A stretch of DNA of 56,855 bases, from positions 1 through 56,855 of the forward strand of contig CAMTVO010000043.1 in assembly GCA_947085205.1 (NCBI GenBank), written 5' to 3'. Position 1 is the first letter of the stretch; each line of letters begins with the position of its first letter. Position numbers: made by a program. This DNA comes from an uncultured Nitrospiraceae bacterium. GTDB lineage: Bacteria > Nitrospirota > Thermodesulfovibrionia > Thermodesulfovibrionales > Dissulfurispiraceae. Positions 30,101 to 36,100 of this stretch are shown in pieces.

Positions 30101-33100
30101 CCTTTCGAGATTTTAGAAGCTCATAACTCAGAACTCAGAACTCAGAACTCACCACTAATCGTGGACTTTTCTCAGATGATTTTGCAGATAATCTGCGATG
30201 TTAAAAGTAGGGAGAATAAGAGCATTATTGCTGCAAGGTTTCATAATACGATTGTTAATGCGATAACAGAAGTCGTTATCCGCATAAACAAGAAATATGG
30301 AATAAACAAAGTCGCGTTAAGCGGAGGCGTGTTCCAGAATTCTTATCTTTTGGAAAATACATTTATCCGACTTTTATCAGAAGGATTTGAGGTTTATACC
30401 AATGAGAAAGTCCCGTGCAATGACGCTGGCATATCCCTCGGGCAGGCGTATATCGCAAGGGAGAGATTAAAAAGGAACTCAAACTTTAAACTTGCTTATT
30501 CCCTGTAGTCTTGCTGCATGGTTGTTCATTGGCTTGTTTTTACACCTCCGACAAAATTTAAAGCCCTTTTGGTCTGTATTCGCTGTGCTGTTTGAAAATT
30601 TTATATTACTCCATCACTATGTCGCCAAATACTACTTTATTAATCCCCTTCAGTGATTTTATTGGGGATTTGAAGATGATTGCTTTGCCGGTAATCTCAG
30701 TAATAATTCCTAAAGCTATTGTCTCGTTATTATGATTCAATCCGATTAGTGTGCCTTTTTCGAAATCTTTTTCCTTTGGGCTGAACGGTTTATTGTTGTA
30801 AAAGAACGCGGCATCGTTTTCAGTTATTAAGAATTCAGAGATTCTCGTTTTGTGGAGATACTCATCGAGTCTTTTCTTTCTATATCTGATGCGATATTCC
30901 CTGCTCCTCACTTTTGCCATGCGGGATGCCTTAATGCGGTGAATACGAATACCTTCAATAAGTTCGAGAATGTGTTCCAGTTCATAATCTCGCTGGACTG
31001 CGATTATATGTTCAGGTTTTACGGCTCTTATCTTGCCGATCTTCAATGCCTTTCCCAAACCTCCTGAAATAAGACCTGTTGTGTCGATGAGTATGATCTC
31101 AGAACTTTTTCTGCAGATGTTGACCATTTTTTTTGTTGCCTCGATCATTAAATAGATTTTTGCGGCTGGATTGCTGTAGCCTACAAAAAACATCTTCTCA
31201 AATCTGAAACTTTCGATATCTCTTTGGGTATGGAATGTCTTCATACTTATTGTTCCCGGTAGTCCGAGGGATGACTGGCCTACATCAGAGTCGACGAGGG
31301 AGACTTTAATATTTTCCGATAATAGCCTTTTTATAAGAAACCTTGCGAGAGTTGATTTGCCTGAATCAGTTGCGCCGAGCAGGATGGCTGCGCCTTTATG
31401 TTTTATCAGGTCTTCGATAAGCCTTTCCCATTCTTGTTCAGGGATGATTTCCATTATCGATTATAACAGAATAAATGAAAATTTAAGGTATATGGTGATT
31501 GTAGTTCTAAAGGAATTCTTGACAGCAGTTCCTTTTTGGAATACTTTTTATAGTAAGAACCAATAGGGAGGACTTTATGCAAGACGACAGTCTCTTTTGC
31601 AATCTTTCACGGCGGGGTGTATCGAGAAGGGACTTCATGAAGTTCTGCACTGCCATGGCCGCAACGATGGCCCTGCCTCCGGGACTTATATCGCAAATAG
31701 CGGAAGCCTTCGAAAAGAAGCAGAAGCCTTATCTTGTCTGGCTCGAGTATCAGGATTGCGGCGGCGATACCGCGGCGCTGCTGGGGGCTAACAATCCGAC
31801 GGTTGCAGAGATAGTCCTCGACATTCTTTCTGTGGAATATCACGAAACAATAATGGCTGCGTCAGGAAAACACGCGGAGAAGTCCCTTATGGATGTTGTT
31901 AAAAAACATAAGGGTAAATATTTTGCCGTTGTCGAAGGCTCTATACCGATGAAGGACGGAGGCGTTTATTGCTGCATTGGAGGTAAATCCGCCGTTGACC
32001 TTTCAAAGGAAATATGCGGCAATGCACTCGCAACAATTGCAGTTGGTACATGTGCATGTTACGGAGGTATCCCTGCTGCAAATCCGAATCCTACCGGAGC
32101 GGTCGGCGTCAAGGACGCCATGCCGGGCATTACTGTTGTTAACCTGCCGGGATGTCCGGTCAATGTCGAAAACATAACAGCAACAATAGTTCATTATCTT
32201 ACATTCTGCTCGCTGCCTACACTTGATGGTCTTGGCCGCCCTTATTTTGCATACGGCAAGAGGATTCATGACCATTGCGAAAGGCGCGCGCATTTCGATG
32301 CCGGACAATTTGTCAGAAAATGGGGCGACGAAGGACACAGGCTCGGCTGGTGCTTATACGAAATGGGATGCAAAGGGCCTGCTGCATACAAGAATTGTCC
32401 TATAGTTAAATACAACGAAGGAACGAGCTGGCCTGTTCAGGCAGGACACGGCTGCATTGGCTGTGCAATGCCGAATTTCTGGGATACCATGACGCCGTTC
32501 TACAGAAGACTTCCGAAAGTTCCGGGCTTCGGCGTCGAGGCTGCTGCCGATAAGATAGGCATTGGCATTGCAGCAGCGGCGGCAGCAGGCGTGGCGGCCC
32601 ATGCTATTGCAAGCACTGCAAGGAAGAAAGAGTCTAAAGAAAAGGGGAAAGAATAAATAGGTAAAGGAGGGAGAGTTTTTATGGCAAAGATAGCAATTGA
32701 CCCGATAACGAGGATTGAAGGTCATCTCAGGATCGAGGCCCAGGTAGAGGGCGGTAAGGTTGTGGATGCATGGTCGTCCAGCACCATGTTCAGGGGCATA
32801 GAGATAATTCTTCAAGGCAGGGACCCGCGTGATGCGTGGGCATTTACCCAGCGAATATGAGGCGTATGAACAACGGTTCACGCCACCAGCTCCGTGAGAG
32901 CGGTAGAAAATGCCTTAGGAATAACAATTCCGGATAACGCGAGGATAATCAGGAACCTTATAACCGGAATACAGTATGTTCAGGATCACGTGATCCATTT
33001 TTATCATTTGCACGCCCTCGACTGGGTGGATATCGTAAGCGCCTTAAAGGCAGACTCTTCAAAGACATCATCCCTTGCCCAGTCCATATCTGACTGGCCC

Positions 33101-36100
33101 AAATCATCTGCGTTATATTTCAAGGGAATTCAGGACAGAGTCAAGGCATTGGTTGACAGCGGACAGTTAGGGATATTCTCCAATGCCTATTGGGGGCATT
33201 CTGCATACAAACTGCCTCCTGAAGCGAACCTGATGGCAGTAGCCCACTACCTTGAGGCGCTCGACTGGCAGAAGGATGTAATAAAGATTCAGACATTGCT
33301 GGGCGCAAAGAATCCGCATGCACAGACATATCTTGTGGCCGGCATGTCCATACCTGTCGATCCCAACAGCCAGAATGCCCTTAACGCGGGAAGCATCGCC
33401 TTTATGTCAGGGCTTGCGAAAAAGGCTCATGAGTTCGTCGAAAAAGTCTACATCCCCGACCTGCTTGCGGTTGCGTCGTTCTATAAAGAATGGGCAAATT
33501 ACGGCGGCGGTGTGGGCAACTTCCTTGTGTACGGCGAATTCCCCAACGACAATCAGAGCAATACAGCCAACCTCTGGCTCCCGCGAGGGATAATCAAGAA
33601 TAAGGATTTAAGCAAAGTCCATCCTGTGGATCACACAAAGATTATGGAATATGTTACGCATTCATGGTATGAATATGCTGGCGGGGACGCAAAAGCCAAG
33701 CACCCGTGGGACGGAGAGACAAATTATAAATATACCGGCCCGAAACCTCCTTACGAGTTTCTCGATACAAACAAGAAATATAGCTGGCTCAAGGCACCGA
33801 GATATTAGGATATGCCTATGGAAGTAGGCCCGCTTGCGAGGATGCTCGTAGCTTATGCATCAGGACACAAGCGCATAAAAGAGGTTGTGGACAGCATATT
33901 GAAGAAACTTGGTGTAAGCCCTGAGGCATTATTTTCTACGCTCGGCCGTGTTGCTGCAAGGGGAATAGAAACTCTGGTTACAGCAGAGATGCTCTCTGTC
34001 TGGCTCGACCAGCTTGCCTCGGGCATGAAGAAGGGAGATCTCCGCATCCACAACGGCAGCAAATGGGAACCTTCTACATGGCCGAAAGAGGCGCGCGGTT
34101 TCGGTTTTCATGAGGCACCGAGGGGAGCATTGGGACACTGGATTTTAATAAAAGACAAAAAGATCGCCAATTACCAGTGCGTTGTGCCGAGCACATGGAA
34201 CGGCTCTCCGAGGGATGCAAAGGGACAAAAGGGGCCTTATGAGGCTGCGCTCATCGGTACGCCTGTAGCGGATATCAACAAGCCAGTAGAAATACTGAGG
34301 ACGATACATTCCTTTGATCCCTGTATGGCTTGCGCGGTTCATGTTGTAGACGCGGCGGGTAAAGAACTTGCAAAGATACGAATAGTTTAGGAGGGGACAA
34401 TGTTAAAGAAGGTTTATGTATGGGAGTTTCCGGTTCGGATGACCCACTGGATAAATGTCCTCTGCATAGCGGCGCTGTCCGTTACCGGCTATTACATCGG
34501 AAATCCCTTTATCCATGCCATTTCCACCGACCAGTACATAATGGGGTGGATGAGGTTTATACACTTTGTTACGGCGTACCTCTTTACGGTGAGCTTCCTG
34601 ATAAGGATTTACTGGGCATTTAAGGGGAACAAGCATGCACGTCTTAAGGAATTTCTTTATTTCAGGGCTCAGCAATTCATAGACTTGATTAATGACATCA
34701 AGTACTATATTTTTATGAGAAAAGAGCATTCTCAGGCTGTCGGGCATACTGCCCTTGCTTCAGCAGTATATTTGGGTTTGTGGATTCTATTTATAGTCCA
34801 GATACTCACCGGTTTTGCCCTTTATTCGCAGAGCCATCACGGAATTTTCTGGAAGCTCATGGGAGGCTGGCTTCTTTCGGTATTTTCCGCTCCGACTATT
34901 AGGCTGTATCATCACATGATGATGTGGTTTATGGTATTCTTTGTTATAGAACATGTATACCTTGTATGGCTTGCTGACAGGTTACAAAAGGGAGGGTTTA
35001 TCAGCTCCATGTTCAGCGGTTACAAAACAGTGGAGGAAGATTAAAATAGATACAGTTGAATGCAATAGGGAGTTTTCGCAAGGGGGACAGAGTCCTTCTT
35101 GCGGCCATATAGCTGTTATAGGACTCGGCAATATACTTTTAAGGGATGAGGGCGTCGGGGTTCATGTAACAAACACCATAAAACAAGGGTATACCTTTTC
35201 TCCATACGTGGAGATAATTGATGGTGGAACCATGGGCCTCGATCTTCTGCCGCTCTTTGAAGGGCGTGATAAAATCTTAATCGTCGATGCCGTAGATTTC
35301 GGCAGAGAGCCGGGATATGTCGGTATAATCAAAAATGAAGACATACCATCCGCGCTCAATTCAAAACTCTCTGTCCACCATATAGGGCTTTCTGATGTCC
35401 TCTTTGCCTCAAAGCTGATGGGCATATCGCCGTTGGAAATATGCCTTATCGGAATACAGCCTGAATCACTCGATGTTGGGCTTGACATGACAGAGGAGAT
35501 TAAAGGGAAAATAGAGACAGTGATAGATTTAATCATCGGAAAGCTGAAGGAGTGGAACATAGAATGTGCCTTGCTGTCCCGTCAAGAATCATTGAAATAA
35601 ACAATCTTCTCGCAACTGTTGATGTATATGGAGCAAGGAAAAAGATAAGCCTTTTGCTCCTTCCTGAAGAGGCGCATCTCGGCGATTATGTCCTCGTGCA
35701 CGCAGGCTTTGCAATTCAAAAGGTGGACAAAGAAGCTGCAAAGGACGCCCTGAATCTCATCAGGGAGATCACCGAGACAATGGAAGAATGAGGCTGAATC
35801 TGGAGTTCCCAAAGATTAGATAGTCTTCATTACCAGACAGCTTTTCTTGCCTGCAAAAGCCTGTTTATGCTATTTTACAAATACTTGAAATCAAGGGGGT
35901 TTTATGGTTAAAAGCGACAGGTGGATACGGGAGATGGCTCAAAAGGGAATGATTGAGCCTTTCAATAAAAAGCAGGTCAGAAAGGGCGTCATTTCTTACG
36001 GCGTAAGCTCCTACGGCTATGACATGAGGATAGGCGGCGAATTCAAGATATTTACCAATATAAACAACACAGTTGTCGACCCCAAGAATTTCGACCCGAA

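Follow-up and report, generated by a model that had tools for sequence, protein, structure and literature searches.

UGA codons at two nickel-ligand positions of a Group 1 [NiFe] hydrogenase from an uncultured Nitrospiraceae bacterium: a candidate double-selenocysteine enzyme

In the genome of an uncultured Nitrospiraceae bacterium the gene for a [NiFe] hydrogenase large subunit contains three in-frame stop codons, which raises the question of whether the gene is damaged or its stops are read and, if so, as what. The window, that is the whole stretch of DNA analysed, comprises 56,855 nucleotides of contig CAMTVO010000043.1 (Table 1). As the initial annotation had proposed, the locus is one gene: a single frame of 569 codons plus stop has internal stops only at codons 60, 63 and 376. 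The two TGA codons replace both cysteines of the N-terminal motif, giving R-I-U-G-V-U-T-T-V-H, and fall on positions 76 and 79 when aligned with a hydrogenase-1 large subunit; the C-terminal motif DPCMACAVH keeps its cysteines, again as annotated. Of the two N-terminal cysteine positions the first binds Ni only and the second bridges Ni and Fe (PMC13582414), so that the ligand roles now rest on a source and an alignment. Because UGA occupies two of the four Ni-binding cysteine positions here and likewise in well over 100 related genes, two selenocysteines at the active site are likely. We estimate a probability of roughly 0.7 that both UGAs are read as selenocysteine by SelB and tRNA-Sec when selenium is present, predicting two selenium and two sulfur ligands. 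One selenium would be terminal on Ni and one would bridge Ni and Fe, and the C-terminal cysteine and the glutamate tied to proton transfer are unchanged.

Table 1. Features of the hydrogenase locus and the selC*-type tRNA gene located elsewhere in the genome (G000)
Feature	Position	Strand	Basis
HypF, [NiFe] site maturation carbamoyltransferase	27926..30508	+	TIGR00143, 781 bits (cut-off 466)
Hydrogenase small subunit	31577..32656	+	TIGR00391, 441 bits; TIGR01409 (Tat-type signal) above cut-off
Group 1 [NiFe] hydrogenase large subunit, 569 codons	32681..34390	+	Frame, PDB match, PF00374
AUA Ile codon immediately 5' of UGA60, constrained in UxxU genes	32855..32857	+	Codon counts
Codon 60 (TGA), predicted Sec at the position of the terminal Ni ligand	32858..32860	+	Frame; orthologues; alignment; PMC13582414
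Codon 63 (TGA), predicted Sec at the position of the Ni-Fe bridging ligand	32867..32869	+	Frame; orthologues; PMC13582414
UxxU-linked element around ACG-GUU (codons 65-66)	32867..32884	+	Codon counts; two weak alternative hairpins
SECIS-type hairpin, apical loop CGUGA at 32893-32897	32885..32904	+	Shuffles, covariation
TAG codon 376, standing for GAG (Glu) very likely through assembly error or as a minor allele	33806..33808	+	Runs, orthologues
C-terminal Ni motif DPCMACAVH, two Cys retained	34316..34342	+	Sequence
Ni/Fe-hydrogenase cytochrome b subunit	34400..35044	+	TIGR02125, 171 bits (cut-off 121.5)
HyaD/HybD maturation endopeptidase	35100..35600, start approximate	+	TIGR00140, 154 bits (cut-off 151.8)
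selC*-type tRNA-Cys (tRNA-ReC)	G000 C52:4307-4425		tRNA-Sec-like, 55.2 bits, above Rfam cut-off

By its Ni motifs, closest structures and neighbouring genes, this is the large subunit of a membrane-bound Group 1 H2-uptake [NiFe] hydrogenase, with putative activity. PF00374 matches it with 787 bits across the stops and the best PDB match is 3myr_B (E 1e-222, residues 3-554); the other best matches, 4c3o_A and 1h2a_L, are Group 1 enzymes as well, and for F420-reducing and NAD-reducing enzymes no match is better than E 1e-28. We take 3myr to be an enzyme of HydDB subgroup 1e, and the order small subunit, large subunit, cytochrome b and an Asp-ligated proximal cluster presumably are traits of subgroup 1f. 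The Tat-exported small subunit has no internal stop and a DCGGD proximal-cluster motif, and it is accompanied by the cytochrome b, the endopeptidase and Hyp genes (HypF within the window, HypD outside it). From this gene content, the small subunit and then cytochrome b would carry electrons from H2 to the quinone pool. Two other identities were considered and rejected. The gene is not a classical [NiFeSe] hydrogenase (HysA), as DPUxxC is replaced by DPCMACAVH and model NF045518, whose cut-off is 780, gives a score of 421; nor is it a Group 4 UXXU enzyme, its best structure matches and operon being those of Group 1.

The third stop is of a different kind. At position 33806 all three covering runs have G and thus GAG (X1 at depth 160, X3 at 4.8, X5 at 3.5), the runs having been compared as contigs from two studies, with X1 possibly the source sample and X2 lacking coverage there. 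The 29 closest orthologues all have GAA, GAG, GAC or GAT at this place, which upholds the annotation of the TAG as peculiar to the source genome, and a tRNA search of the genome found no tRNA with a CUA anticodon. It is very likely that the TAG reflects an assembly error or a minor allele and that the main allele of the living population lacks it, a point absent from the earlier interpretation. Three in-frame stops in an assembly would also suit a pseudogene, an artefact or, for TGA, genome-wide reassignment. However, the same runs that contradict the TAG agree with the assembly at both TGAs where these are covered, and orthologues of 74-94% protein identity keep the TGA pair with no further internal stop among the matches listed. 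Reassignment is opposed by TGA ending 253 of 857 long frames in the genome and by the presence of tRNA-Trp(CCA). This reading is already largely refuted and hardly credible.

The distribution of the TGA pair goes far beyond chance. When 251 genomes of the order were searched and the best 150 matches listed, with 73 weaker ones left out, at least 87 genomes had a match with two internal TGAs among those listed; the loci of 32 were fetched, and in all 32 the TGAs stood at the two cysteine positions, as the initial annotation had held. A hand count of the listed rows with at least 66% identity gave 86 two-TGA, 13 one-TGA and 30 Cys-type orthologues. The form had been called the rule in the order, which is right for orthologues (86 of the 129 rows listed) but not for genomes (at least 87 of 251). 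In five genomes a TGA-type orthologue is accompanied by a Cys-type one among the matches listed. An independent pattern scan of GTDB genomes, which allowed TGA, TGC or TGT at the second position, returned at least 120 loci; 117 of the 120 listed are UxxU hydrogenase motifs, and the other three are chance matches outside any hydrogenase frame. UxxU occurs in three Group 1 lineages, and the C-terminal motif is CxxC in all 98 loci in which it was parsed (of 109 UxxU loci). The CxxU form was found in 22 genes, and no convincing UxxC was found among the GTDB pattern matches listed and the orthologues examined.

The genome is equipped to insert selenocysteine. Profile searches place SelA, SelB and SelD above cut-offs, the single tRNA-Sec has a UCA anticodon and a G discriminator, and in eight other genes a redox or metal motif contains an in-frame TGA, the loop of a hairpin lying 17-24 nt downstream of it. 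The hydrogenase gene has UGAs aligned to conserved cysteines, selA, selB, selC and selD in the same genome, and a SECIS for UGA63. Comparison of UxxU, CxxU and CxxC genes shows a covarying SECIS-type hairpin that tracks UGA63 and is absent from Cys-type homologues. Its mean Z against synonymous shuffles is -2.4 in 100 UxxU genes, -1.9 in 22 CxxU genes and -0.1 in 16 CxxC genes; five of its six pairs have changes on both sides, its covariation is 0.276 versus 0.112 (reached in 0 of 500 shuffles) and 87% is paired, compared with 32-60% in slid controls. The loop codon is GTG in 94/96 UxxU and 22/22 CxxU genes versus 2/11 CxxC genes with Val there. With -7.6 kcal/mol, the hairpin fits the bacterial SECIS model of a G in the first two loop positions, a spacing of 16-37 nt and about -7.5 kcal/mol (PMC13188914). 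It lies 23 nt past UGA63 and 32 nt past UGA60; the latter distance is inside the general range but outside the 17-24 nt of single-UGA genes in the same genome.

UGA60 has a sequence context of its own: by codon counts, extra constraints (AUA before, ACG after) track this codon. Among Chloroflexota UxxU genes, 28 of 29 have ATA before it where their own codon usage predicts 1.6, as do 59 of 67 others (25.8 expected), and ACG is used in 87 of 96 UxxU genes with Thr at that place (19.5 expected) versus 4 of 21 CxxU genes (4.1 expected). In four to six independent pair contrasts the average almost never ran in the opposite direction but was not significant. Two hairpins with compensatory changes had been annotated downstream of the UGAs. 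The distal one stands, whereas the proximal UGAAC-NACG-GUUCA pairs but has a single compensatory cell in 75 sequences; folds of this segment around codons 65-66, two weak alternative hairpins, covary little and mostly lack the loop G, and the analysis brought up no second canonical SECIS. It is conceivable that only UGA63 is SECIS-programmed and that UGA60 is passed by context-promoted, SelB-independent read-through to Cys or Trp. The hairpin, already present in CxxU genes and at normal distance only from UGA63, the constraints peculiar to UGA60 and the lack of convincing UxxC among the sequences compared would all agree with this. But leaky read-through gives little protein and Trp cannot ligate Ni, TGA60 has been kept in more than 100 genes of three lineages although one base change would restore Cys, and one SECIS common to both codons explains the lack of UxxC equally well. 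We consider such read-through distinctly improbable.

A different route to cysteine has more substance. The genome encodes an apparently intact selC*-type tRNA with a GCA anticodon and a U discriminator, a possible Cys route missing from the earlier interpretation. The gene has the features by which selC* is recognised, namely a tRNA-Sec-like fold, a GCA or UCA anticodon, U73 and at least 80 nt (PMC5389517, PMC13582414), and its charging and its decoding of UGA are putative; tRNAs of this type are reported in the available text of PMC11415595 to decode UGA as Cys via SelB. Since it also lies beside a LysR regulator, in a LysR_Sec_metab/YeeE/YedF locus, Cys insertion is a live rival or a fallback. 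As a rival, one or both UGAs would normally be read as Cys by this tRNA and SelB at the same hairpin, the enzyme being mono-selenium or all-sulfur and the UGAs a regulatory gate. All related selC* genes that were read have the GCA anticodon, and PMC13582414 found selC* enriched in Group 4 UXXU genomes and named the same limitation. At E 1e-6, selC*-like matches are somewhat commoner in two-TGA genomes (44/87, as defined among the matches listed) than in the rest (53/164), a comparison of kin that are not independent and of incomplete assemblies. The other 43 of the 87 have no match at this threshold, and five further UxxU genomes have tRNA-Sec but no selC* among the 12 of 13 matches read, so UxxU is not tied to selC*. 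In three relatives (G180, G042, G209) a Cys-type large subunit gene adjoins LysR_Sec_metab, selC* or YeeE/rhodanese genes and has no small subunit gene directly upstream. Such spare subunits, together with the five genomes holding both types, are what a selenium requirement of the TGA form would predict; the spare subunits would be pointless if UGA always meant Cys. The setting of the tRNA gene is likewise easier to reconcile with a fallback for selenium shortage than with a constitutive route, and neither a second SelB nor a second CysRS was found in the source genome (90% complete). Routine Cys insertion is therefore unlikely, though clearly more plausible than read-through.

For the preferred reading, with selenocysteine at both codons, SelB bound to the single CGUGA hairpin could serve UGA63 at normal spacing and also UGA60. 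AUA before UGA60, perhaps by a pause, may aid its decoding, and the weak fold around ACG-GU could bring the hairpin nearer. Under selenium shortage the selC*-type tRNA(GCA) may put Cys at the same codons, and some relatives might keep the separate Cys-type large subunit in place of this fallback. A wider proposal, which we regard as tentative and somewhat doubtful, is a natural [NiFeSe2] uptake hydrogenase that would be the dominant form in a whole order and occur in three Group 1 lineages, with two UGAs nine bases apart decoded from one SECIS and extra cis signals (AUA before the first, a small fold after the second) and with a cysteine tRNA under selenium control that switches these codons between Se and S ligands.

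The annotated contrast with all described [NiFeSe] enzymes is not upheld, as N-terminal Sec is already reported in silico (Takano et al. 2026, PMC13582414): 47 Group 4 sequences comprise 27 with CXXU, 4 with UXXC and 16 with UXXU. This prediction for Group 4, dating from September 2026, makes the motif less surprising here; we found no published description of a Group 1 UxxU hydrogenase. The Group 4b UXXU genes share with ours both N-terminal UGAs, a C-terminal Cys motif, one downstream SECIS with a loop G, Sec genes, the selC*/tRNA-ReC caveat and a tree on which Sec and Cys forms are interspersed. They differ in belonging to energy-converting complexes with antiporter-like subunits, whereas ours is an uptake enzyme with cytochrome b. 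All Sec forms make up about 0.2% of Group 4; UxxU is here the commonest orthologue state among the rows listed for the order, without convincing UxxC, and we found no description of UGA60-specific codon constraints in PMC13582414. That paper also cites two CXXU sequences of Group 1; as quoted there, Baltazar et al. 2011 predicted a single Sec at the bridging N-terminal position for Groups 1 and 3. This precedent is described inconsistently, as that review is quoted for the C-terminal bridging position instead in the available text of PMC8020662. Classical Group 1a enzymes (Desulfovibrio vulgaris HysL, Desulfomicrobium baculatum) share the fold, a Sec Ni ligand and SelB/SECIS decoding, but have one Sec, at the C-terminal terminal position, and a Ser in place of the canopy Asp kept here (D102, aligned with D118). 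In engineered E. coli Hyd-1 (Evans et al. 2021, PMC8020662), selenocysteine at the same two positions left the single variants active, C76U at 3% and C79U at 13% of the native level, and lowered the apparent KM for H2. Both were slower than the native enzyme and tolerated O2 less well, which counts against the preferred reading in giving Se no evident benefit; the variants are artificial, and the available part of that source describes no natural or double form. Methanococcus has Sec/Cys isoenzyme pairs regulated by selenium through the LysR protein HrsM (available text of PMC5322559), a likeness to the gene neighbourhoods seen here in bacteria, with selenium-metabolism LysR genes of putative regulatory role beside selC* in our genome and beside Cys-type subunits or selC* in relatives.

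If selenium does occupy both positions, the family, widespread and part of the hydrogenase group that has been studied best, would offer a natural comparison for bridging and terminal ligands with the proton-relay Cys still sulfur, where prior tests placed Se at one position at a time in an engineered enzyme only. It also provides a test case for the decoding of a UGA pair with a three-codon spacing and for a fallback role of selC* tRNAs in selenium shortage. There is a practical consequence as well. The GUG of the hairpin, from which an ORF starts at 32894, is the false start codon of truncated database proteins, and 65 of the 120 best database matches are 498-aa truncations. Because databases hold these fragments without the N-terminal metal motif, the scoring of H2 uptake is likely wrong for these Nitrospirota and for some Anaerolineae.

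The large subunit is encoded by a single frame of 569 codons, with stops at codons 60 (TGA), 63 (TGA) and 376 (TAG). The initial annotation had placed two in-frame TGA in one large-subunit gene, and this is borne out: the read-through product matches Group 1 homologues over its full length and aligns end to end with Group 1 [NiFe] large subunits in the PDB (3myr_B, E 1e-222). In a hydrogenase-1 large subunit, the residues aligned with codons 60 and 63 are Cys76 and Cys79; E13, D102, the arginine of APRG and the two C-terminal cysteines are retained. We read the gene as a Group 1 uptake hydrogenase in which two conserved UGA codons are recoded, most likely as selenocysteines (UxxU in the notation used below, with U, TGA-coded, or C, cysteine, at the two N-terminal Ni-site positions), and assign this sequence-based reading a probability of roughly 70%. 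The assembly contains no other large subunit of this type; one weaker-scoring hydrogenase frame without stops lies on contig C32. Sequences suspected of a third, C-terminal Sec were frameshifts, gaps or contig ends, and this reading was rejected.

Features of the source genome (G000); positions refer to the window unless a contig is named
Feature	Position	Strand	Remarks
HypF	in window		HypD elsewhere in genome
P-loop protein, 282 aa	30609-31454	-	encoded opposite to its two neighbours, hypF and the hydrogenase operon; without a clear match in NCBIfam
Tat-type small subunit			upstream of large subunit, same operon
Small-subunit proximal-cluster motif	31740-31770		DCGGD; last residue Asp, Asn or Cys among relatives
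Large subunit	32681-34390	+
UGA60	32858-32860		codon 60
UGA63	32867-32869		codon 63
Hairpin	32885-32904		loop CGUGA
TAG376	33806-33808		codon 376
Cytochrome b, then HyaD/HybD protease			downstream of large subunit
Selenium-metabolism cluster (L305)	G000:C52:339-5449
tRNA-Sec-like gene	C52 4307-4425		GCA anticodon, U discriminator, 55.2 bits
NuoB gene (L243)	G000:C28:23583	-	in-frame TGA
NuoB gene (L244)	G000:C59:36829	-	in-frame TGA
Second YeeE-family gene (L242)	G000:C38:34783	+	in-frame TGA in GG-U-TVG

Three internal stops had been described initially; the two TGA are conserved, whereas the TAG is not, and all three covering runs read GAG. This comparison used contigs of four sequencing runs rather than raw reads, three of which cover position 33806 and have G there (X1, depth 160, possibly the sample the genome came from; X3, 4.8; X5, 3.5), and on these contigs a genuine recoding site was rejected. 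Because, in addition, the 29 closest orthologues all have a Glu or Asp codon at this place and no tRNA with a CUA anticodon was found in the genome, TAG376 is very likely an assembly error or a minor allele. Genome-wide reassignment of TGA or TAG and pyrrolysine were likewise rejected on stop usage and the lack of a CUA tRNA among those found; TGA still terminates 253 of 857 long frames.

Of the two N-terminal positions, the first ligates Ni only and the second is a bridging ligand of Ni and Fe (PMC13582414). Single Sec variants of E. coli Hyd-1 at these positions retained 3% and 13% activity, with a lowered apparent KM for H2 and reduced O2 tolerance, and Se at the C-terminal position hampered proton transfer to E28 (PMC8020662; PMC11212049). 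We would guess that a two-Sec site could give anaerobes better H2 affinity at low H2. In the accessible text of PMC13582414, N-terminal CXXU, UXXC and UXXU are reported in Group 4 only, from data that exclude Groups 1-3, and two Group 1 CXXU sequences are cited from Baltazar 2011. The UXXU motif is common to those enzymes and the one described here, which differs in belonging to Group 1 (HydDB subgroups as defined in PMC5037454). No paper on a Group 1 UxxU hydrogenase was found in the literature searched (few subscription journals, articles without survey supplements), and PMC9469722 holds nothing on the motif.

Two internal TGA occur in at least 87 of 251 genomes sampled from the order, as counted from the 150 best matches, with 73 weaker ones left out. 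By hand count, orthologues with at least 66% identity among the matches listed comprise 86 rows with two TGA, 13 with one and 30 of the Cys type, after one fragment without the motif was dropped; 18 of the Cys-type rows come from one genus. Among the sequences fetched (32 of 87 two-TGA, 22 of 28 one-TGA and 16 Cys-type genes), every two-TGA gene was UxxU and every one-TGA gene CxxU. A GTDB pattern scan with TGA at the first position and TGA, TGC or TGT at the second returned at least 120 loci, namely 117 UxxU hydrogenase motifs and 3 chance matches; the taxa in the 80 listed titles are Nitrospirota/Thermodesulfovibrionales, Chloroflexota (Anaerolineae and related groups), Methylomirabilia/Rokubacteria, Deltaproteobacteria and Acidobacteriota. 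The GTDB and order-wide sets share members, and 8 identical pairs were collapsed. The best 120 protein-database matches consist of 65 fragments of 498 aa that begin after the motif and 55 full-length proteins with Cys at both positions. When JGI data were scanned for UxxC, a single match appeared, on a 1.1-kb contig without the hairpin signature; we attribute it to a sequencing error or a nonsense mutation. In a sample of 401 genomes from the phylum of genome G251, a loose motif pattern matched 49, mostly by chance, and was discarded as a basis for a phylum-wide count; since only the centre genome had a UxxU hydrogenase motif (four had CxxU-like motifs), UxxU is, judged by its motif, uncommon across that phylum as a whole. 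RICGV-TGA-PG(A)H motifs in L281, L282 and G299 of this phylum resemble further CxxU Group 1 hydrogenases at the motif level.

In a quick tree of 185 rows (LG+G4, midpoint-drawn; 52 database rows counted as Cys from protein rather than DNA), UxxU is placed in three Group 1 lineages: the window's own; a hydrogenase-2-like one (L060, best PDB match Hyd-2, E 1e-208; a sister locus carries an upstream NrfD gene); and a distant one (L087), whose best PDB match is a classical [NiFeSe] enzyme, yet with C-terminal DPCIAC. The distant lineage (L087, L120, L136, L144 and L194; 41-47% identity; nearest to classical [NiFeSe] enzymes) has the motif UGVUP, its Sec codons being N-terminal and its C-terminus DPCIAC where parsed. 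Hydrogenase-2-like (Hyb-type) loci L059-L069 of the window's order carry CxxU in ten cases and UxxU in one. Stepwise gain from CxxC over CxxU to UxxU suits the hydrogenase-2-like lineage, where these forms branch in that order, but as a general route it was rejected: in the main lineage, forms with Cys or CxxU branch from within UxxU groups (19 state changes on the tree). Given this nesting and a Cys-type gene in G205 in a gene order identical to the window's, losses of UxxU look common. Protein columns tracking the Sec state were rejected, as the top columns adjoin the motif or follow phylogeny.

SelA, SelB and SelD of the source genome all score above profile cut-offs, and there is one tRNA-Sec with a UCA anticodon and a G discriminator. 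The UGA codons might instead be read as cysteine by a selC* tRNA, a type reported to decode UGA as Cys through SelB (PMC11415595). The tRNA-Sec-like gene on C52 fits selC* tRNA-Cys as described (PMC5389517, PMC7609411) and is flanked by LysR_Sec_metab (311.6 bits, cut-off 250), a YeeE-family transporter and YedF; selC*-like genes occur across the order, with a GCA anticodon wherever read, and hits were obtained in 44 of 87 two-TGA genomes versus 53 of 164 others (E 1e-6, our own threshold; hits read in part). Five further UxxU genomes have tRNA-Sec only. The C52 cluster also holds a transglutaminase-like gene; the variable arm of its tRNA(GCA) is unusually long, and a second, 5'-truncated copy adjoins a transposase-like frame.

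Against synonymous shuffles, the SECIS-type CGUGA hairpin has a mean Z of -2.4 in UxxU (98 of 100 below -1) and -1.9 in CxxU, and is not more stable in CxxC (-0.1). The distance to its loop is 23 nt for UGA63 and 32 nt for UGA60; the bacterial model allows 16-37 nt (PMC13188914). Compensatory changes had been noted for two hairpins: for this one they stand, with both-side changes in 5 of 6 pairs among 75 distinct UxxU windows and a covariation of 0.276 versus 0.112 (reached in 0 of 500 shuffles), though several also change amino acids, and in about one third of the sequences the pairing around this GUG loop is shifted in register. For the first hairpin they do not: it is 88% paired, but has 1 compensatory cell, is mostly protein-fixed and contains UGA63 itself, and was rejected as a second SECIS. 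One SECIS may serve both UGA codons, which would also explain why UxxC is not seen. In genes with at least 150 downstream codons, AUA precedes UGA60 in 28 of 29 GC-rich Chloroflexota UxxU genes (1.6 expected) and 59 of 67 others (25.8 expected), compared with 4 of 12 CxxU genes; ACG stands at codon 65 in 87 of 96 UxxU (19.5 expected) versus 4 of 21 CxxU genes (4.1 expected). Kin are not independent here, and the 4-6 independent contrasts include no significant one. AUA might slow the ribosome, and a small fold might shorten the distance between UGA60 and the SECIS. Another possible fold, spanning positions 14-31 counted from the first UGA, is 58% paired and was rejected because a slid control covaries more; neither candidate fold around ACG is well supported.

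Among ten gene neighbourhoods of relatives, G227 and G205 have complete Cys-type operons without selenium or sulfur neighbours, and in G221 such an operon is preceded by a divergent selC*-like gene. In four others (L297 on G042:C8, L298 on G180:C214, L300 on G209:C225 and L301 on G157:C9), a Cys-type large subunit and cytochrome b lack a small-subunit gene directly upstream, and selenium or sulfur genes adjoin three of them: G180 (L298) has LysR_Sec_metab and selC* but no small subunit, G042 (L297) has selC* in addition to a UxxU gene, and G209 (L300) has rhodanese and YeeE genes in addition to a CxxU gene; G157 (L301) is without such neighbours. Their products are possibly swap-in subunits under selenium shortage. 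These neighbourhoods resemble the selenium-regulated Sec/Cys pairs of Methanococcus (PMC5322559) and, as evidence from gene position, favour genuine use of selenium with a Cys fallback.

A read-through survey of the source genome yielded 147 codon-scored candidates. For seven of 20 picked by hand, a Pfam search places the TGA inside a known domain of redox or metal type: glutaredoxin-like UXX-star, thioredoxin-like, formate-dehydrogenase-like molybdoenzyme, YeeE, two NuoB and peroxiredoxin. These and SelD all (8/8) have a hairpin with a G-containing loop 17-24 nt past the UGA, in a search window set where loops are expected. In both NuoB (complex I subunit B) genes, TGA takes the place of the leading Cys in the tandem CC motif (GLA-U-CAIEM), and a CGGGA-loop hairpin follows 22 nt downstream. 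NuoB is absent from the families named in the accessible text of a 2026 selenoproteome review, and these genes are candidates for a new selenoprotein family. With the YeeE-family gene on C38, the genome has both a Cys-type and a predicted Sec-type YeeE.
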